IMG/VR virus record: IMGVR_UViG_3300047290_000027
Coordinates: 1-36,126 of that record
Origin: a virus
Taxonomy: Duplodnaviria; Caudoviricetes
Reading direction: 5' to 3' (one strand)
DNA length: 36,126 nt
The number at the start of each line of letters is the position of its first letter. Position 1 is the first letter of the stretch. Position numbers and translations under genes: made by a program. Positions 1 to 36,126 of the stretch are shown piece by piece. Below the pieces are notes generated by a model. That model saw only the letters and a program-made list of their open reading frames with translations. It searched no databases and was not told where the DNA came from.

Positions 1-144
1 ACGAACAATGGGCCAAGACCCGCAAAGCCTGGTGCAGCGGGAAGAGTTTCTAACAACACTGAGGCATTGCGAGCACAACAGCGTCTTGCGAAAACTGGCC
101 GTGTCGATGACGCGGCTGATGCAATCTACAAACTCTTGAAATAA
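1..144 (+). CDS. C-terminal fragment of capsid scaffolding protein (same gene as 34826..35818)
   Basis: Positions 1-127 are identical to 35675-35801; frame reads TNNGPRPAKPG...DAADAIYKLLK, TAA at 142-144. Confidence 0.9.
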   Translation, partial: TNNGPRPAKPGAAGRVSNNTEALRAQQRLAKTGRVDDAADAIYKLLK

Positions 145-451
145 GGAAAAATCATGTCTATCGTAAGTAACACATTTACAACCTATAGTGCTAAAGGCAT
201 TCGGGAAGATCTTTCAAATGTAATAACAAATATTGCACCGGAAGAAACTCCATACCAAAGTAATATTGGCCGTGAAACCGTCAGCAATACTTTGTTTGAG
301 TGGCAGACCGACACACTGGCAGATGCAGCTGCAAATGCTCAGTTGGAAGGTGATGACGTTGGCACATTCGATTCAGTCACCGCGACTGTCCGTCTGACCA
401 ACTATGCACAGATCGCACGCAAAACCATTGTCCTATCGAACACTGAAGAAG
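1..451. repeat. Terminal direct repeat, left copy (partner 35675..36126); exact for 127 bp, then divergent
   Basis: Direct comparison of both ends; first mismatch at 128 (A) vs 35802 (T); sequences re-converge at TCGAACACTGAAGAAG. Confidence 0.95.
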
Positions 452-17855: not shown

Positions 17856-17986
17856 TCAATCCAATCAATGATCCAACCGATGGCCTCTTGTGCTGTCGGT
17901 ATTTCACCTGTATCTGCCTCAACTTCATTAGCCTGGTCAAGTAATTCCATCAGGAATGCTTTGAGTTTTTCTTTTTCAATCATCAT
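17849..17986 (-). CDS. Small acidic hypothetical protein (45 aa, not in ORF track)
   Basis: MMIEKEKLKAFLMELLDQANEVEADTGEIPTAQEAIGWIIDWIDQ; ATGA overlap with upstream gene; GGAG RBS. Confidence 0.65.
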   Translation of the reverse strand: MMIEKEKLKAFLMELLDQANEVEADTGEIPTAQEAIGWIIDWIDQ

Positions 17987-18351
17987 CTATCTCCAAACAA
18001 TGCAGCCACCAGCGGGTCCCGCCGTGGCTTAAGCCTATGACCTCTTTCACGCGCCAAGCGGAAAGCCTTATCGTCCAATGTCTCACGCGCTCTGTGGCGG
18101 CGCAAACGCTCCATGGGTGTCAGCGGTGGCGGTCTGGCCGCATCAGTGCCGATGCCATAACGGTACACGGCCACCAGTATGCGGCCTGATCTAGACCATT
18201 CTTGAATGTGTACCGTGCCAGCCAGCCGCAGCCGCTTGATCATCTGCTGCGCTGAACGCTCGGTGCAGTACACCTTGGCCGCCAGCTCTGGCGCTGTGCA
18301 GCCGGTGCGCTGGAGAATGTCAATGACTCGCGGGAGCCTTGCTGAAATCAA
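17983..18351 (-). CDS. Winged-HTH-like DNA-binding protein
   Basis: TAPELAAKVYCTERSAQQMIKRL HTH pattern; basic C-terminus RRDPLVAALFG. Confidence 0.65.
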   Translation of the reverse strand: MISARLPRVIDILQRTGCTAPELAAKVYCTERSAQQMIKRLRLAGTVHIQEWSRSGRILVAVYRYGIGTDAARPPPLTPMERLRRHRARETLDDKAFRLARERGHRLKPRRDPLVAALFGDR

Positions 18352-19082
18352 GTGTTCTTCTCCTTAATCTTGGCTTGCAAGGCTTCCCCAAAGGCAAGCT
18401 GACCCTGCATCTGGTGACCACCGCGATGGTCTTTTAAGATTTCAAAATAAACATTCTCAATTTGTGTGCGAGTTAGGTTTACCCATGTGCGCTGTGGTAA
18501 GGTGATGTTGTTCTCGCCGATGTAGGCGATCAACGGGACTTTCTTACACTCTCGCCCAGTGACAAGATTTTCTTGCAAAGATTCAATGACGGCTTCAAAT
18601 CGTTCAATCTCAGACTCTCCAAACTCTAGTCCTTCAAGATTGTCCTCAATTCCAGCAAGTGTTAGTTCGCCAATGCAAATGTAGTCTGACAAGTCTTTTT
18701 TGGCGGCAGTCCATTGGGCAAAATGCAAAGTATCTGCCACAGACTTTTGCTCTGGCTGTGCCAAGGCTTCTTTGAAATTTGCTTTTGGTTCTTTCACTAG
18801 CAAAATTAAATTGTGTTTGCTGCCTTGATTTTCTTGCGCCAGCGTGACCGTGCCAAATAGACGGTTGCCGCTATCGTGTTCTTCTGTGCTGACATCAATC
18901 GACACCTCCATTCCCGTCACAAGCGCCGCAATATCTTGCTCTTGTGCCAAGGCTTCTTTGATGGCGGCAATTGCTTTGTGCATTTTTTCTGCTGATGCGT
19001 TGAACTCATCATTGTTTGTCCAATCAATAGACAGCTCTGTCTCCAGCGCATCAAGTGCCAGCTTTAATACTTCTTGTGTCAT
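18348..19082 (-). CDS. Mosaic accessory protein
   Basis: Start reassigned to ATG 19082; linker motifs LALDALE, KEALAQ(P)EQ x2, PQRTWVNLT, KIKEKNT. Confidence 0.75.
   Translation of the reverse strand: MTQEVLKLALDALETELSIDWTNNDEFNASAEKMHKAIAAIKEALAQEQDIAALVTGMEVSIDVSTEEHDSGNRLFGTVTLAQENQGSKHNLILLVKEPKANFKEALAQPEQKSVADTLHFAQWTAAKKDLSDYICIGELTLAGIEDNLEGLEFGESEIERFEAVIESLQENLVTGRECKKVPLIAYIGENNITLPQRTWVNLTRTQIENVYFEILKDHRGGHQMQGQLAFGEALQAKIKEKNT
18757..18961. repeat. 19-bp direct repeat TGTGCCAAGGCTTCTTTGA (18757-18775, 18943-18961)
   Basis: Read directly; encodes KEALAQ twice on minus strand. Confidence 0.9.
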
Positions 19083-19342
19083 GACTTTACCCCACAAACT
19101 TTTTCCATGTACGCCAAATAAAGCTGGTCAACAGTTTGAAACTCTCTGCTGTCGCCATCAAGAAACCAGCATCTTTTCTCGCTATGCCATTTCCCACTGC
19201 GCTTGTTTCGCTTAGTGTGTACTTCATGTTGAAGCCCATGCTTTTCATTGCGGTACATACGTTGTGCGCCGTGGTCAAATGTTATTCCTAATGTGTATCG
19301 GTATAAAAGTTCATCGAATTCTTCAAACGTCAGTTCAGTCAT
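19079..19342 (-). CDS. Hypothetical protein
   Basis: 87 aa, GAGGTG RBS, overlaps neighbours. Confidence 0.7.
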   Translation of the reverse strand: MTELTFEEFDELLYRYTLGITFDHGAQRMYRNEKHGLQHEVHTKRNKRSGKWHSEKRCWFLDGDSREFQTVDQLYLAYMEKVCGVKS

Positions 19343-19577
19343 ACTTGTTCACCTCTGATTGTTTTTTGCCGTAATTGGCTTCCCAATCGTAATAAGCAAG
19401 CCAGTGTGCGCCGCACTTATTGCATCGAGTTTTAAATCTAGGTGAACCCCAATCAACTGTCACATCTTTATGATTACACTTCCATTCTAGGTACATACCT
19501 ATATAAATAATGGGCAATGTAATAAGCCCCGCCCCACCAAAAACTAAAATAACTAATTGGTTAAGATTTTCGTTCAT
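19335..19577 (-). CDS. TM-anchored protein with CxH/CxxC possible Zn ribbon
   Basis: LVILVFGGAGLITLPIIYIGMYL then CNH...RCNKCG; AGGAG RBS; AT-rich. Confidence 0.7.
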   Translation of the reverse strand: MNENLNQLVILVFGGAGLITLPIIYIGMYLEWKCNHKDVTVDWGSPRFKTRCNKCGAHWLAYYDWEANYGKKQSEVNKYD

Positions 19578-19771
19578 GTTTGTTCTCCTGTTCTGGCTCT
19601 AATTATTTTGGCGGCATCAATAACCTTGTCCCAACCCCAATATTCTTGTTCTTCCTCACACGCCTTTGCACAAGCTTCACGTTCAGCTTTGATTGCTGCA
19701 TCTACATCAGATTTTGTCCACAGATTAAATCTCGCTCTAATCCATGCGTTGAATTCGGCTTGTGTCATCAC
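19574..19771 (-). CDS. Hypothetical accessory protein (EREACAK motif)
   Basis: AEREACAKACE...IRAR-GEQ C-terminus; GTG start overlapping upstream stop. Confidence 0.7.
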   Translation of the reverse strand: MMTQAEFNAWIRARFNLWTKSDVDAAIKAEREACAKACEEEQEYWGWDKVIDAAKIIRARTGEQT

Positions 19772-19983
19772 GCCACCTTTTTGTATTTGCCGGACCAGAC
19801 GTAATGGCCGCGTGGCTGCGCGGCACCCATATTACGAAAGAACGTCAGCATGGACTTGTACGGCACGCTGAAACGCTCGGCTATCTCTTTCTTGGTCAGT
19901 CCATTAGAGAGCAGCAGCATGGCTCTGCGGCCATTGATGTCAGGTAGTTTGCGTCCTGAGTTAGGGCGTGATCCACCTTTCAT
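19768..19983 (-). CDS. Small basic HTH-like DNA-binding protein
   Basis: GGSRPNSGRK N-terminus, GLTKKEIAERFSVPYKSM HTH pattern. Confidence 0.65.
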   Translation of the reverse strand: MKGGSRPNSGRKLPDINGRRAMLLLSNGLTKKEIAERFSVPYKSMLTFFRNMGAAQPRGHYVWSGKYKKVA

Positions 19984-20093
19984 TACTTCACCTCAGTCTC
20001 ATCGAGTAGAAACTTGACCACGCACGCAAGCACGATCACCACCAGTGCAATGCCGAGCAGGCCGACCAGCACGAAATTCATCATTGTTTCCAT
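19983..20093 (-). CDS. 36-aa single-TM peptide (not in ORF track)
   Basis: METMMNFVLVGLLGIALVVIVLACVVKFLLDETEVK; GGAGG RBS; TAATG coupling to next gene. Confidence 0.7.
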   Translation of the reverse strand: METMMNFVLVGLLGIALVVIVLACVVKFLLDETEVK

Positions 20094-20157
20094 AGAAATC
20101 CTCCGAGTCGAAATAGAACAGCGCCAGCACCGCCAGCACCAGCAATATGATTTTCAC
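19999..20157 (-). CDS. 52-aa peptide with hydrophobic N-terminus (not in ORF track)
   Basis: GTG start in GTGA overlap; MKIILLVLAVLALFYFDSEDFYG...; overlaps the next ORF by 95 bp. Confidence 0.45.
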   Translation of the reverse strand: MKIILLVLAVLALFYFDSEDFYGNNDEFRAGRPARHCTGGDRACVRGQVSTR

Positions 20158-20423
20158 TTCTGAGCCGCCAGTAGTTCCATCTCCACTTCCTTGACGCGCT
20201 CGCGCAGGATGCTGATCTCTTGTTCCAAACCGGTGATCTTGCGCTGCATACGCTCACGGGTCATGTTCTCGGCGTGCGTCCAGCCAATGAACGTGCCGTC
20301 AGTCACAGCCTGGCGTGCAAGCGTCTTAAAGTCCTCGCGGGTGAGGAATCCACCGCCGATCTCCATAGGTGGCGTGAACTTGTTGACGGCTCGGTCAATC
20401 TCAATCTGCATCTTTTCAGACAT
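20154..20423 (-). CDS. Hypothetical protein with C-terminal coiled coil
   Basis: Start reassigned to ATG 20423 after AAGGAGA; MSEKMQIEID... Confidence 0.75.
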   Translation of the reverse strand: MSEKMQIEIDRAVNKFTPPMEIGGGFLTREDFKTLARQAVTDGTFIGWTHAENMTRERMQRKITGLEQEISILRERVKEVEMELLAAQK

Positions 20424-20670
20424 TTGTCTCTCCTTGTGGTTGTGTGTTGCTCCAGGCTTGCACCAGCAGTGCGGCGTTGTAAGGGATCGGTGTTGCGGTG
20501 GACACAAACAAGCCTTTGCCGCGCTGTTTGCGCCCCCATGCATCCATGGCATTGGCATTCTTCAATTCATTGCGTTTGACAGCGTTATAGACCGCGTGCT
20601 GCTTGTATCCGGCCTCCACCAATTCATCCATGGTGCGCGGTTCTTGGCAGAAGTCTTGTAACTCAGTCAT
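20416..20670 (-). CDS. Hypothetical protein (possible wHTH)
   Basis: Start reassigned to ATG 20670 (ATGA overlap); MTELQDFCQEPRTMDEL... Confidence 0.7.
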   Translation of the reverse strand: MTELQDFCQEPRTMDELVEAGYKQHAVYNAVKRNELKNANAMDAWGRKQRGKGLFVSTATPIPYNAALLVQAWSNTQPQGETNV

Positions 20671-20807
20671 GATGACCACCATGCTATGAGCAGTGCGGCC
20701 AAGCCAGTGCCGATGACAAGGCACAGCAAGTAGTCAGCGCAAGCCTCTGCGCGTTTGCCAAGCCTACGGTGGCAGGCATCAGTCATGGCGTGTTGGGTGT
20801 GGTTCAT
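20667..20807 (-). CDS. 46-aa C-terminal-TM peptide (not in ORF track)
   Basis: MNHTQHAMTDACHRRLGKRAEACADYLLCLVIGTGLAALLIAWWSS; TAAGGAG RBS. Confidence 0.7.
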   Translation of the reverse strand: MNHTQHAMTDACHRRLGKRAEACADYLLCLVIGTGLAALLIAWWSS

Positions 20808-20816
20808 AAGGACTCC

Positions 20817-20978
20817 TTAAAGTTTCCAATATTCGCCAACAGGCAAGCCGTTAGATCGAAGATACAACTCCAACCAAAGCTGATGAATCAGTGCCGCTTT
20901 TAAAAACTCTTCTTCCCACTCATACTTTTTAACTGCCTCGCGCAATTCGCCCATTTCGTTAAATGCTTGTTGGTTCAT
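20817..20978 (-). CDS. 53-aa hypothetical protein, first gene of leftward operon (not in ORF track)
   Basis: MNQQAFNEMGELREAVKKYEWEEEFLKAALIHQLWLELYLRSNGLPVGEYWKL. Confidence 0.65.
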   Translation of the reverse strand: MNQQAFNEMGELREAVKKYEWEEEFLKAALIHQLWLELYLRSNGLPVGEYWKL

Positions 20979-21009
20979 TTAAATGTCTCTCTTGTTTGTT
21001 GACAAATAA

Positions 21010-21037
21010 ATCATATCATTAATTGCTAACATATCAA
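21010..21037 (-). promoter_or_regulatory. Leftward sigma70-type promoter with extended -10
   Basis: Minus strand TTGATA-16 bp-TATGAT with TG at the extended position, ~30 bp upstream of ATG 20978. Confidence 0.55.
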
Positions 21038-21081
21038 ATACCTTACAAATTAGTCAACCATTAACCGATTACAATGTCCCT

Positions 21082-21140
21082 CGCTGGTTCATGCTTCCAG
21101 CAGTTGCCTTTGGGGATCGGTTCACGCGATCCCCTTTTTT
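21082..21140 (+). ncRNA. Candidate ~60-nt small RNA
   Basis: TACAAT -10 at 21070-21075 (no good -35), 5' hairpin GCTGG-TTCATGCTT-CCAGC, intrinsic terminator with no upstream + strand gene. Confidence 0.4.
21112..21140 (+). terminator. Rho-independent terminator
   Basis: GGGGATCG-GTTCACG-CGATCCCC-TTTTTT. Confidence 0.8.
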
Positions 21141-21150
21141 CGCTGTACAC

Positions 21151-21180
21151 TTGACGCTTTCCACAAAACATGGTTAACAT
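21151..21180 (+). promoter_or_regulatory. Rightward sigma70-type promoter (leaderless transcript)
   Basis: TTGACG-18 bp-TAACAT, ATG 8 bp downstream, no RBS. Confidence 0.55.
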
Positions 21181-21187
21181 CATACAC

Positions 21188-21424
21188 ATGAAAGTCTCAC
21201 AGCAAGCAATTCAGGACATCAAGCACAAGATCGAGTCAGCCGGTTACCGGATGTCCGATCTCTGCCGTGTCGCAGAAATCGACCAGGCGCAGCTATCGCG
21301 CTGGGTAAATGGTCAAACAGAACCACTTTACTCTACCGTAATCAGGTTGGAGCAGGCCGCAGACGCGCTCATCTCAGCGCGGCTACAGGTACTCAACAAG
21401 GCCATGGAGGATGCCGTCAAATGA
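21188..21424 (+). CDS. XRE/Cro-like HTH transcriptional regulator
   Basis: MSDLCRVAEIDQAQLSRWVNGQTEP HTH_XRE pattern; first gene of rightward early operon; start reassigned to 21188. Confidence 0.8.
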   Translation: MKVSQQAIQDIKHKIESAGYRMSDLCRVAEIDQAQLSRWVNGQTEPLYSTVIRLEQAADALISARLQVLNKAMEDAVK

Positions 21425-27374: not shown

Positions 27375-28058
27375 ATGGCAACAAAGCAAAAGAGTAGACA
27401 GCATCCACCAGCAACGAGTCCAAGTCCACAAGCAGACCCTTGGACGATTTATGTGCAATCAAAACTGGTGGAGTTGGAGTCAGCCAAGGCAGTCAGCGAC
27501 AGGAAATGGGGAGAAAATCGACTGATTACTTTAGTTGACAGTCAACTCAGAGAGAAATTCTGGATTCAGAACGCCAGATTGCAGCAAGCAGTCACGGCAA
27601 AGGATCAGCCGAAATTCGATTCAAGCCTGGCGGGAATGATCAGGGCGTATGGCGTGCTGGATCAGTGGGCAGCCGATCAAGGCATAACGCCAGCCAGCGA
27701 CAGCATCCCAAGGATTGAGTGGGAAATGCAAAACGGCCAGGTCATGGTGATTGTCAGAACGGTCAACGAGGCCGTGGCAATACAGCGGGAGCGTCAAGAC
27801 ATCAGCAACCAGAACATCTGGAGCATGGAAGAGATTGAGGTGCTGATGGCCGATCCTCGTATGCAGGAGATTATCAAGATCAAAGCATTATTCCCAACAG
27901 CCAAAGTAACCGGATTCAAACCAGCGCCAGACTTCAAGCTTGGCGGCGCAACAGGATTTGATGACTTTGAAAACGACTTGAAATTCGATGACAATGAAGT
28001 CATGGAAAAGAAATTCGACACCAAACTCGCAGGAAGGCTCAAAAATGCAGCGAATTAA
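27375..28058 (+). CDS. Hypothetical protein
   Basis: 227 aa, GAAAGGA RBS, between primase-helicase and terS. Confidence 0.8.
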   Translation: MATKQKSRQHPPATSPSPQADPWTIYVQSKLVELESAKAVSDRKWGENRLITLVDSQLREKFWIQNARLQQAVTAKDQPKFDSSLAGMIRAYGVLDQWAADQGITPASDSIPRIEWEMQNGQVMVIVRTVNEAVAIQRERQDISNQNIWSMEEIEVLMADPRMQEIIKIKALFPTAKVTGFKPAPDFKLGGATGFDDFENDLKFDDNEVMEKKFDTKLAGRLKNAAN

Positions 28059-28115: not shown

Positions 28116-28547
28116 GTGGCAGGAAGACCGAAATTCAGACAGGACATGACTCTGCTTGAGGATTTGCCTCACGACATGATTGTGTCCATGTTTGAGGCAG
28201 GCAAGTCACAGACAACGATCTGCTACGAACTTGGCATTGGGCGCAGGGCGCTAGAGCAATGGATCGAAGATACCGATCCCTCTATAATTGCGCGTGCGCG
28301 CGCGATAGCCGCCGATAAGTTGGCGGTAGAGACAATGTCCATTGCGGATGACATGGACGTGGAGCATCCGCAGCGCGATGTCCAGCGTATCCGAACCAGG
28401 CAATGGCTGGCCGAACGATGGGATCAGAAGACTTACGGCTTACAAAAGGCTGCCTCGATCAACATCAACATCCAAGATTTACGCATGGCCGCGCTGCGCC
28501 ATGTTGAAGTGGTTGACGAGTTATCCACAGGCGAGAGGCAGGATTGA
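28116..28547 (+). CDS. terS: Terminase small subunit
   Basis: N-terminal HTH, ARARA-AAD-L---IAD, RIRTRQWLAERW---YG pattern; upstream of terL. Confidence 0.75.
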   Translation: MAGRPKFRQDMTLLEDLPHDMIVSMFEAGKSQTTICYELGIGRRALEQWIEDTDPSIIARARAIAADKLAVETMSIADDMDVEHPQRDVQRIRTRQWLAERWDQKTYGLQKAASININIQDLRMAALRHVEVVDELSTGERQD

Positions 28548-28628
28548 GCCATGATTGAACACATTGCCCTGTGGATAACGCAACTCTGCCTGTTTGTTGA
28601 GCAAATACTGGTCAGTTATCCACAATTG

Positions 28629-28656
28629 ACTTAACATAATGGACATCGTGTAAAAT
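28629..28656 (-). other. dif-like XerC/XerD recombination site
   Basis: Minus strand ATTTTACACGA-TGTCCA-TTATGTTAAGT; XerD arm 10/11 to TTATGTTAAAT; 11-6-11 architecture. Confidence 0.75.
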
Positions 28657-28689
28657 GGAATATGTCAGCATTCTGTAAGAAAGCATATA

Positions 28690-28702
28690 GATCAATGACT
28701 TG
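28690..28702 (+). promoter_or_regulatory. IHF-like binding site
   Basis: GATCAA-TGAC-TTG vs WATCAANNNNTTR (one mismatch), A/T-rich 5' flank. Confidence 0.45.
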
Positions 28703-28865
28703 CATGAATAGTGGATTGTGGATAACTTTCAGCGGTAAAGTGGCCGCTGCTGGCGCTGGAGCGTGCCGCTGGCCGTGGGCGGCTGCGATCCCCCCCTTGC
28801 GCGATTTCGGCGGGGGCGGCTGAAGATGCAACCGAACACCTACCGAATCCCATAGCCCACCGCCT

Positions 28866-30338
28866 ATGACCGACCCCCATACCCCCACTGCGACAAAGCC
28901 GCGCGTCCCGAAAAAAAATTCCGAGGATTTGCTGGCGAATAACCCGTTTGTCGAATTCGTCAAGCTGTACAAGAACAACCCTGTACTTTTCGTCAGAGAG
29001 GTGCTGAACACTGAGCCTGACCCGTGGCAAGTGGAATTCTTGAATCATATTGCGTCAGGCAACCGGCGTATCTCTGTCAGATCAGGCCATGGCGTTGGGA
29101 AGTCCACGGCGAGCGCCTGGGCGATGATCTGGTACTTGCTGCTGCGCTTTCCGGTGAAGGTGGTGGTGACAGCGCCAACGAGCAGCCAGTTGTATGACGC
29201 GCTGTTTGCGGAGGTCAAGCGGTGGGTGAAGGTGCTGCCGCCGATGCTGGCTGATATGTTGGAGGTTAAGCAGGACAGGATTGAGGTGAAAGATGCCAAC
29301 GAGGAGGCGTTTATCTCAGCCAGGACATCTAGAGCCGAGCAGCCCGAGGCGCTCCAAGGGGTTCACAGTGACCATGTGATGCTGGTGGGGGACGAGGCCA
29401 GCGGTATTCCGGAGAAGGTGTTTGAGGCGGCCAGCGGCTCAATGTCGGGGCATAACGCCGTCACGCTGCTACTGGGTAATCCGGTGCGAAGTAGCGGATT
29501 CTTCTACGACACCCATAACCGTCTGGCGGGGGATTGGGTGACGATGAAGGTGTCCTGCGCCGACTCACCGCGCGTGTCTGAGGCTTACATTGAGGAGATG
29601 AAGTCGCGGTACGGCGAGGAGAGCAATGCTTACCGCATCCGCGTGCTGGGTGAGTTTCCAAGGAGTGACGAGGATACGGTTATTCCCATGGAGCTGTTGG
29701 ACTTGGCGATGAATCGGGACGTGGTGGCGAGTCCTTATGCGCCGCTGGTCTGGGGATTGGACGTTGCAAGGTTTGGCTCGGATCGCTCGGCGCTGTGCAA
29801 GCGGCGGGGGAATGCGGTGATTGAGCCGATTAAGACGTGGAAGAATTTGGACTTGATGCAGCTGACGGGCGCGGTGGTGGTTGAGTTTGAGGCGTTGCCG
29901 CCAAGCGACAGGCCGGAGGAGATACTGGTGGACAGCATTGGGCTTGGTGCTGGAGTGGTGGATCGGCTGAAGGAGTTGGGTTTACCGGCTCGCGGAATAA
30001 ACGTCAGCGAGTCACCGGCCATGGGTGGGACTTACCGGAATCTGAAGGCCGAGCTTTGGTACAAGGCCAAGGCGTGGCTGGAGCAGCGGGACTGTCGGCT
30101 GCCCAAGGATGAGTTGCTGGTGGCCGAGTTGGCGACCGTGCGTTATATGTTTACGTCTAACGGAAAGATTCAGATTGAGAGCAAGGATGAGATCAAGAAG
30201 CGGGGGTTGGCCTCTCCGGACAAGGCTGATGCGTTCTGTTTGACGTTTGCCTCAGACGCTGTAATCGGCATGATGGGGTCAAAGGCCAGCACCAAGTGGG
30301 GACAGCCGTTGAAAAGAAACCTGTCAAGGGTTGCATAA
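28866..30338 (+). CDS. terL: Terminase large subunit
   Basis: Walker A VRSGHGVGKS, Walker B LVGDEASG, LGNP coupling motif, nuclease WGLDVARFGSD...SPDKADA. Confidence 0.95.
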   Translation: MTDPHTPTATKPRVPKKNSEDLLANNPFVEFVKLYKNNPVLFVREVLNTEPDPWQVEFLNHIASGNRRISVRSGHGVGKSTASAWAMIWYLLLRFPVKVVVTAPTSSQLYDALFAEVKRWVKVLPPMLADMLEVKQDRIEVKDANEEAFISARTSRAEQPEALQGVHSDHVMLVGDEASGIPEKVFEAASGSMSGHNAVTLLLGNPVRSSGFFYDTHNRLAGDWVTMKVSCADSPRVSEAYIEEMKSRYGEESNAYRIRVLGEFPRSDEDTVIPMELLDLAMNRDVVASPYAPLVWGLDVARFGSDRSALCKRRGNAVIEPIKTWKNLDLMQLTGAVVVEFEALPPSDRPEEILVDSIGLGAGVVDRLKELGLPARGINVSESPAMGGTYRNLKAELWYKAKAWLEQRDCRLPKDELLVAELATVRYMFTSNGKIQIESKDEIKKRGLASPDKADAFCLTFASDAVIGMMGSKASTKWGQPLKRNLSRVA

Positions 30339-34825: not shown

Positions 34826-35818
34826 ATGCAGACAGTAGCACCAACGCCAGCAGGCAGTGCCGTTCAAGGTCCGATGAGTATGGCTGAAGCAGCCGATGCA
34901 CTTGTAGGAATGCTCCCCGAAGAGGGACAAGAGGATTCAGGCGAGTCGCAGTTGCCCGAAGAGGGCGCGGCGGGAGATGATGAGTTGCTGACCGATGCAG
35001 ACGCGGATAGCAATGAAACTGATCCCGAACAATCCGAAGAAGATGAAGATTCTGAAGAGGAAGAACAGCCACAAGTCTTCACCGTCAAGGTTGACGGTAA
35101 AGAAGTCGAGGTGTCGCTGGACGAACTCCAAAAGGGATATTCAAGGACTCAGGATTACACACGCAAAACGCAGCAAATTGCCGAGGTGCGAAAGCACGCC
35201 GAGGCAGAGTTGCAGGCAGTGCGTGCCGAGCGCGAGCAATACGCTCATTTGTTAGGAGCTTTAGAGGCTCAGGTTCAACAGGCAACGCAGCCAAACATTG
35301 ATTGGGAACGTCTTTACCAAGAAGACCCCATTGAGTGGGTAAGGCAGCGCGAGGTGATGCGAGAAAACCAAGAGAAGAATGCGGCTATTCAAAGCGAAAA
35401 GCAGCGCCTGTCTCAGTTGTCGCAACAGGAACAAATGCAGCAGCACCAGATGGTGTTGCAGCAAGAGCAAGAGGCTTTGGTGGCGGCTATTCCCGAGTGG
35501 AAAGACTCCAAGAAGGCTGCGGCTGAAAAAGCCATGCTCGTTCAATTCGGCCAGAAGGCTGGATTCTCACCTGATGAACTTAAGAATGTTCTTGATCACA
35601 GGGCGGTTGTATTGCTGCGAAAAGCGGCGCTGTACGACCAGATGGTGTCCAAGCGTGGACAGATCAAGCCAGTGACGAACAATGGGCCAAGACCCGCAAA
35701 GCCTGGTGCAGCGGGAAGAGTTTCTAACAACACTGAGGCATTGCGAGCACAACAGCGTCTTGCGAAAACTGGCCGTGTCGATGACGCGGCTGATGCAATC
35801 TTCAAACTCTTGAAATAA
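34826..35818 (+). CDS. Capsid scaffolding protein
   Basis: Acidic N-terminus, VKVDGKE-EV-LDEL-KGY---DYTRKTQ, coiled coil, C-terminal RL-KTG--DDAA; precedes MCP. Confidence 0.85.
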   Translation: MQTVAPTPAGSAVQGPMSMAEAADALVGMLPEEGQEDSGESQLPEEGAAGDDELLTDADADSNETDPEQSEEDEDSEEEEQPQVFTVKVDGKEVEVSLDELQKGYSRTQDYTRKTQQIAEVRKHAEAELQAVRAEREQYAHLLGALEAQVQQATQPNIDWERLYQEDPIEWVRQREVMRENQEKNAAIQSEKQRLSQLSQQEQMQQHQMVLQQEQEALVAAIPEWKDSKKAAAEKAMLVQFGQKAGFSPDELKNVLDHRAVVLLRKAALYDQMVSKRGQIKPVTNNGPRPAKPGAAGRVSNNTEALRAQQRLAKTGRVDDAADAIFKLLK

Positions 35819-36126
35819 GGAATTCACCATGTCTATCGTAAGTAACACGTTCACCACATACTCTGCAAAGGGTATTCGTGAAGATTTGAGCAATGTGATC
35901 ACAAACATTTCTCCCGAAGAAACACCGTACCAATCCAACATTGGCCGCGAAACTGTCAACAACACTCTGTTTGAGTGGCAGACCGATGCACTCGCTGACG
36001 CTGCTGCTAACGCACAGCTTGAGGGTGACGATGTCGGCACATATGATGCAGTAACAGCAACCGTCCGCTTGACTAACTATGCTCAGATTTCACGCAAGAC
36101 TATTGTCTTGTCGAACACTGAAGAAG
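35675..36126. repeat. Terminal direct repeat, right copy
   Basis: Matches 1..451 (127 bp exact, then ~78% nt identity in the MCP coding part by hand count). Confidence 0.95.
35829..36126 (+). CDS. Major capsid protein, second allele, 5' 99 codons (truncated by window end)
   Basis: MSIVSNTFTTYSAKGIREDLSNVITNISPEETPYQSNIGRETVNNTLFEWQTDALADAAANAQLEGDDVGTYDAVTATVRLTNYAQISRKTIVLSNTEE; 6 aa differences from 154..450. Confidence 0.9.
   Translation, partial: MSIVSNTFTTYSAKGIREDLSNVITNISPEETPYQSNIGRETVNNTLFEWQTDALADAAANAQLEGDDVGTYDAVTATVRLTNYAQISRKTIVLSNTEE

Follow-up and report, generated by a model that had tools for sequence, protein, structure and literature searches.

Site and genomic setting

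What use a tailed phage without a recombinase of its own might have for a site that resembles the chromosomal dif of its likely host is the question raised by the terminase region of the virus record IMGVR_UViG_3300047290_000027 (Caudoviricetes), the whole of whose 36,126 nucleotides we call the window. Its minus strand reads ATTTTACACGA TGTCCA TTATGTTAAGT at 28629–28656, between the genes for the small and large terminase subunits (terS and terL; Table 1). The initial annotation took this stretch for an 11-6-11 XerC/XerD site in a phage devoid of integrase and resolvase, and proposed that the phage either integrates at host dif or resolves its own circular multimers.

The genome is rated complete, its head module is of the LUZ24/phiM5 type, and its sequencing runs are mostly from freshwater. 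PHROG profile matches uphold both terminase assignments. That the phage has neither an integrase nor a resolvase of its own was also borne out, as PF00589 (integrase), PF00239 (resolvase) and PF12375 (DUF3653) gave no match in the six frames of the window, and comparison of 57 window ORFs with PHROGs revealed no integrase or resolvase. A 227-aa ORF at 27375–28058, between the primase-helicase gene and terS, has no PHROG or Pfam match, and unmatched ORFs of similar size occupy the same place in loci L204 and L257. Positions 17983–21424 have a divergent layout, with a block of leftward ORFs without assigned function and an HTH gene (21170–21424); a clear repressor or partition gene was not found in this region. 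The two ends of the window (1–451 and 35675–36126) share an overlap of 452 bp at only 84.5% identity, nearly exact in its first ~148 bp, and the contig may join two strains.

Table 1. Features of the terS–terL region, in window coordinates.
Feature	Position	Strand	Remarks
terS, small terminase subunit	28116–28547	+	phrog_1482, E 3e-11; PF20901, E 1.4e-11
Inferred direct terminal repeat	28476–28829		limits copied from phiM5, by homology only; encloses the whole cassette
DnaA box 1 (TTATCCACA)	28521–28529	+	inside the 3′ end of terS
DnaA box 2	28570–28578	−	box (at most one mismatch) at offset −59/−60 in 82/95 gaps
DnaA box 3	28616–28624	+	4 bp from the XerD arm; offset −13 in 62/95 gaps
XerD arm TTATGTTAAGT	28629–28639	−	11/11 to Rhodoferax and many Limnohabitans-genus dif sites; modal base frequency 0.93 (32 representatives)
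6-bp spacer TGTCCA	28640–28645	−	private to phages and satellites; in 67/95 phage gaps
XerC arm ATTTTACACGA, Comamonadaceae type	28646–28656	−	10/11 to host dif L327; inner YACRA common to host sites
TGTCAG/TGTAAG pair, 11 bp apart	28663–28679	+	between the XerC arm and the IHF-like site; visible in anchored alignment
IHF-like site GATCAATGACTTG	28690–28702	+	predicted; 33 or 34 bp from the XerC arm wherever found (86/95 gaps)
DnaA box 4	28717–28725	−	offset +88 in 56/95 gaps
C-run/G-run motif, likely near genome end	28790–28816	+	like a motif in phiM5; kept in cassette-bearing and resolvase phages
terL, large terminase subunit	28866–30338	+	phrog_2, E 1e-47; 55% to phiM5 terL

Homology to Sinorhizobium phage phiM5 makes it likely that the terS–terL gap is a direct terminal repeat: the annotated repeat of phiM5 (357 bp) runs from inside the gene before terL to 13 bp after the C/G motif. 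Contig depth over the gap exceeds that on the terS side in X3, X4, X5, X10 and X14, slightly so in X8, and not in X1 or X2. Of 82 right contig ends, 20 lie at 28654–28978 as against 10 at 29000–30300, in a scattered pattern. Because both hints have technical explanations, strain collapse giving the same depth picture, they are ambiguous and were rejected as proof of a terminal repeat.

A host-type Xer core

Taken by itself the XerD arm is weak evidence, matching at one mismatch or fewer in 31 of 100 shuffles. The whole 28-mer, by contrast, agrees at 25 of 28 positions with a single-copy chromosomal dif of the Limnohabitans genus (L327; XerC arm 10/11, XerD arm 11/11); the best match elsewhere in the window is 17/28, and 200 shuffles never exceeded 20/28. 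An 11-bp XerC arm, a 6-bp spacer and an 11-bp XerD arm like those of host dif are thus all present, the minus-strand reading is confirmed, and the 28-mer is almost certainly a real XerCD site. The XerC-side arm had been described as divergent; given the match to the Limnohabitans-genus dif it is instead host-type, and the spacer alone is private.

The arms also point to a host. In the published Rhodoferax dif (a table row of PMC2731167), the XerC arm ends in ATACGA and the XerD arm is the same as that of the window; compared by eye with this row, the window site agrees at 11/11 positions of the XerD arm, 8/11 of the XerC arm and 4/6 of the spacer. A dif match was found in 108 of 127 genomes of the genus of a Limnohabitans bin, nearly always in single copy and in the form YACGA-spacer-TTATGT(T/A)AAGT. 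Counted by eye, the spacers in these 127 genomes are mostly TGTATA, and TGTCCA occurs in one of 111 matches, within a satellite. The Polynucleobacter-genus dif, found in 47 of 61 genomes, has a different sequence, for which reason Polynucleobacter was rejected as host of the window phage; its XerD arm is that of 7 of 95 phage gaps. Across the phages compared, the arms track host genera: YACGA/TTATGTTAAGT arms are as in Limnohabitans-genus dif, the TTATGTCAAAT arm is as in Polynucleobacter-genus dif, and the TTATGTTAACT/C arm is as in six other family genomes, whose spacer is TGTATA. From the dif match we infer that the host is Limnohabitans or a near relative, and since the arms follow host genera they could serve as a marker for host prediction.

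The site is also retained by relatives. From 160 loci (159 fetched plus the window) we obtained 96 distinct complete terS–terL gaps, with terS identities ranging from 50 to 98%, and in 95 of them the site lies at the same place and in the same orientation. The initial annotation would have given up the Xer reading had the XerD arm not been conserved in relatives; the arm is kept in these 95 gaps. Among 32 representatives the XerD arm has a modal base frequency of 0.93, the inner XerC arm one of 0.82 and the spacer one of 0.87, compared with 0.51–0.61 in the flanks, so the core is conserved above its surroundings. All 95 phage spacers differ from that of the host, none being TGTATA; TGT on the XerC side is present in the window, kept in 73 of these spacers and absent from 22. 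Sites are also present in L165 (terL 77%) and L167 (terL 60%), the latter with the canonical GCGCATAA/TTATGTTAAAT pair. The sole gap of the 96 without a recognizable XerD arm (L079) retains three DnaA boxes.

Searches of 50,697 GenBank phages with the cassette (blastn) and terS (tblastn) gave no meaningful match. A full Xer-type site was not found in tf, phiM5, MW202879 or the fetched parts of C72C1, MW202711 and MW202496, and Methylophilales phage Venkman gave one weak match. Further Xer-type sites, with the odd spacers CGGGCA, CGAGCG and CGGGCG, occur in L347 (537–564; G001:C236), L526 and L527, of which L347 is a phage contig akin to the window in its primase region.

DnaA boxes and an IHF-like site around the core

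The 28-mer is the core of a cassette of ~200 bp, in which an IHF-like site and four perfect DnaA boxes are spaced in helical phase. These elements, together with the likely terminal repeat and the resolvase exchange described below, were absent from the initial annotation. The window has just four perfect TTATCCACA boxes, all of them in the 205 bp at 28521–28725, and none of 100 shuffles reached a count of four. The TTA, TCC and ACA codons of box 1 are kept in 95, 94 and 96 of the 96 gaps, respectively, and the neighbouring codons vary synonymously. Boxes 3 and 4 are part of an 18-bp inverted repeat that flanks the core. The sequence GATCAATGACTTG was called IHF-like from what we take to be the IHF consensus. 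Its distance from the XerC arm is 43–44 bp in another phage group, and offsets within the cassette move in steps of ~11 bp, with the far box at −97/−99 or −108/−109 and the IHF-like site at 33/34 or 43/44. As at cer and psi, accessory sequence thus stands at a fixed distance from the core, namely the IHF-like site at 33/34 bp in 86 of 95 gaps and the phased DnaA boxes.

Phages whose terL is only 29% identical carry the cassette at 135–140 of 180 identical positions and with the same spacing, but inverted relative to terS and terL. The cassette therefore acts as a movable unit, for which internal geometry counts and orientation does not. The L257 and L273 groups have the core with other DnaA-box patterns, L227 and L264 have it without boxes, and because several phage groups and satellites have a site lacking boxes, DnaA is not needed everywhere. 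The cultured phage Venkman, which has a related portal, carries five perfect DnaA boxes (L420: 1–370, 1758–1798, 38614); three of them lie with an IHF-like site at the ends of the record, which has no clear dif.

A promoter (TTGACT/TAAAAT) overlapping the site had been proposed, with the corollary that Xer binding might repress late genes. Both hexamers are present; they were not flagged by a consensus scan, and TTGACT recurs in 42 of 95 gaps and TAAAAT in one. With its −10 element not conserved, and with the cassette inverted relative to terS and terL in other phages, repression of a late promoter loses its footing; the indifference of the cassette to direction argues against a terL promoter as such. 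That the motifs are a late promoter, or sites for terminase or a phage regulator, which merely resemble host sites is very improbable. They do sit at the terS–terL junction, where packaging signals are expected, and lambda cos uses IHF. A chance likeness of this kind would nevertheless have to accommodate agreement with host dif at 25/28 positions, arms that vary with the host genus, a cassette that flips orientation, sister phages of the same terS family that package without it, and a −10 hexamer confined to a single gap.

Integration at host dif

Several observations agree with a role of the site as attP, through which the phage would integrate at chromosomal dif in the manner of VGJphi, with exchange by XerC and resolution of the junction by replication, thereby parting terS from terL. 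The phage has no recombinase gene, as in IMEXs (mobile elements that integrate by way of Xer), and the divergent HTH-gene region at 20978–21170 resembles a genetic switch. The phage XerC-side triplets TCA, TGA and TAT are also found among Limnohabitans-genus dif variants. According to passages of PMC4246890, VGJ requires spacer homology on the XerC side only, and TGT is common to most host sites.

We nonetheless consider such integration unlikely. Three overlapping sets of site-bearing loci (100, 47 and 43; 190 in all) showed no host–phage junction at the site, nor did any viral contig show the strict hybrid pattern of a phage XerC flank with a host spacer. In the host genomes, one of 401 at the family level has a ...CCA spacer and one of 127 at the genus level has TGTCCA, in both cases within satellites, and the close terL detected in one genome of each set is the same 3-kb contig. 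Prophages beginning with terL and ending with terS at chromosomal dif had been predicted; neither gene was found beside 47 host dif loci, and the two genes stay joined in L164 and L165. TGT is lacking from 22 of 95 phage spacers, whereas the six host sites that share the TTATGTTAACT/C arm of these phages have TGTATA. These 528 host-family genome searches, which yielded no element integrated at dif between hybrid sites, covered draft genomes and contigs, and metagenome bins often lose prophages. The PF12375 search of the window gave no DUF3653 protein, which we take to be the TLC-type Xer activation factor; other IMEX types do not need one. Of the two fates first proposed for the site, integration at dif thus found no support and recombination of the phage with itself is favoured; the idea that separation of terS from terL acts as an off-switch for packaging depends on integration and is unsupported with it.

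Loose contig ends at 28626 looked like junctions; the X4 end resembles the flank of another phage group with the same site (L364/L378 type), and those in X1, X3 and X5 gave no assignment. Site-bearing loci that had no terS or terL match were attributed, chiefly from the likeness of their flanks, to other groups of phages; four with a TGTATA spacer look like small replicons. The viral contigs L240, L251, L261 and L266 have a host-type TGTATA site, two of them together with a phrog_453 replication initiator, and are likely filamentous-phage IMEXs of Comamonadaceae. Two integrated DUF927 (PICI/P4-like) elements, L343:3352–12440 (G059:C2) and L406:1–1890 (G383:C5), have a ...CCA-spacer Xer-type site directly behind the primase-helicase gene, and these are the only ...CCA-spacer sites in the host genome sets searched. 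The element in L343 carries an integrase of its own, and a separate host dif lies on another contig. Such sites suggest that satellites, too, use host XerCD on their circles.

Exchange of the cassette with a serine resolvase gene

Sister phages (terL 66–77%) that lack the cassette have a serine resolvase gene of their own in the same slot, as in GenBank MW202879 (terL 66%), where a PF00239 gene lies directly behind terS. Among 54 loci related to MW202879, 48 complete terS–resolvase gaps contain no DnaA box and no full site, and a lone XerD-like arm occurs in two; no resolvase match was found within the fetched flanks of site-bearing loci. Loci with a full terL (redundant rows) comprise 202 with the site, 42 with the resolvase, none with both, one with neither and 14 undetermined. 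A tree of 20 rows pairs L273 (site) with L428 (resolvase) as sisters, with support of 100/98, and requires three changes of the site label, of which at least two are forced by strong branches. Resolvase carriers form a few lineages, and the swap amounts to a handful of events. That a resolvase gene stands in place of the cassette in these phages suggests recombination as the function of this slot.

The small PF00239 resolvase gene (L423:966–1634, minus strand; L424–L477) is the first gene behind the C/G motif. In L428 a promoter-like stretch, TTGACA...CATAAT, was noted by eye at the resolvase, which would make it an early gene adjoining the likely genome end.

The exchange also bears on the proposal that DnaA, IHF and XerCD bind the cassette without recombining it, as a docking or decoy pad that protects or tethers the ends, titrates DnaA or aids the start of replication. 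The DnaA boxes and IHF-like site are as well conserved as the Xer core, in several groups the primase-helicase gene is closely followed by the cassette, and passages of 10.1101/866236 propose a non-recombinational role for the DnaA-box arrays in the terminal repeat of T5. The oriC-like combination of DnaA boxes and IHF-like site is, however, lost in the resolvase sisters, and because these phages keep their RepA-like primase gene, the boxes travel with the Xer core and not with the replicon. A site used for binding only, moreover, need not keep a 6-bp spacer unlike that of the host in 95 of 95 cases, and its replacement by a resolvase gene speaks for recombination. We therefore regard a pure binding pad as improbable.

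A model of recombination between phage sites

The explanation we prefer, and think probably correct, is that host XerC and XerD recombine phage DNA with itself, by end-joining or by multimer resolution, probably assisted by IHF and DnaA; the two modes are indistinguishable on present data. With the cassette in a direct terminal repeat, the injected linear genome would carry one copy at each end, in direct orientation. Bending and bridging of the two copies would fall to IHF and DnaA, the part that PepA plays with ArgR or ArcA at cer and psi, and XerCD could then circularize the genome by joining its ends, or reduce replicating multimers to monomers, with no need of FtsK. The private spacer would favour recombination between phage sites over recombination with host dif, and a RuvC-like enzyme of the phage (21421–21891) might, more speculatively, finish the Holliday junction made by XerC. 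FtsK polarity was uninformative, as only two motifs of the type that we take to be KOPS occur in the window.

Some observations sit less easily with this model. The terminal repeat of phiM5 has neither dif nor DnaA boxes, and the TGT on the XerC side of 73 of 95 spacers is compatible with VGJ-type integration. Synapsis at cer and psi needs supercoiled DNA, as stated in parts of 10.64898/2026.02.23.706985, and because linear DNA is not supercoiled, end-joining of the incoming genome would be difficult. Only tentatively, then, do we suggest the more specific scheme that these abundant freshwater podophages close their injected linear genome by host XerCD at a mobile cassette in the terminal repeat, with DnaA and IHF in place of PepA/ArgR or FtsK; the cassette would pass between unrelated phages and could be exchanged for a small serine resolvase. 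If this is true, circularization, and hence infection, would be tied to the DnaA state of the host, DnaA and IHF would constitute a new set of Xer accessory proteins, and the small serine recombinase of freshwater phages would gain a job.

Comparison with known systems

In the papers found, the phages that employ XerCD are small tailless or filamentous ones and do so to integrate, and the resolution sites are those of plasmids. A literature search that covered sources other than subscription journals and supplements gave no account of Xer sites at the genome ends of tailed phages; 10.1101/633727, from the portion available, concerns an inovirus. What appears new here is the swap with a resolvase, a cassette that is both phased and invertible, and arms that track the host around a private spacer. 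Tailed phages that exchange a host-Xer cassette for a resolvase of their own at a likely genome end would offer a testable route by which DNA with short terminal repeats is circularized or unlinked.

The closest chromosomal counterpart is the dif of Comamonadaceae (Rhodoferax, Limnohabitans), whose arms both match; it differs from the phage site in its spacer and in its surroundings, none of the 35 host-type loci inspected having a DnaA box within 300 bp. With VGJphi, CTXphi and TLCphi, which are IMEXs, the window phage shares a single dif-like site and the lack of an integrase. Its spacer is homologous to host dif only in the XerC-side half, like that of VGJ attP in PMC4246890, a likeness absent from 22 of the 95 phage spacers. 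The window phage differs from these IMEXs as a 36-kb tailed phage with no dif junction or prophage found and no DUF3653 protein, and from CTX in lacking paired inverted sites. The type of head module and a C/G motif before terL, just past which the phiM5 repeat ends, are shared with phiM5 (terL 55%, portal 44%), which, unlike the window phage, encodes an integrase and has a repeat without dif or DnaA box. T5 resembles the window phage in the ordered, helically spaced DnaA boxes of the "iss" in its left terminal repeat (10.1101/866236); two-step injection and a long repeat are particular to T5, and XerC goes unmentioned in the available text of that report.

The ColE1 site cer and the pSC101 site psi are alike in having a dif-like core on an extrachromosomal element without a recombinase of its own, with conserved accessory DNA adjoining, and parts of 10.64898/2026.02.23.706985 describe resolution of direct repeats at these sites without FtsK. 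The window site, known here from its sequence, differs in lying on a tailed phage, likely in a terminal repeat, in having conserved sites on both sides of the core, and in its candidate accessory proteins, IHF and DnaA rather than PepA with ArgR or ArcA. In phage P1, site-specific recombination at loxP by Cre circularizes a terminally redundant genome and resolves dimers. Cre is encoded by P1, whereas the enzyme here would be that of the host or, in sister phages, a serine resolvase. The cassette departs from IMEXs in that no copy integrated at dif was found among the loci and genomes searched, and it would work like cer and psi or like P1 loxP by analogy of function.
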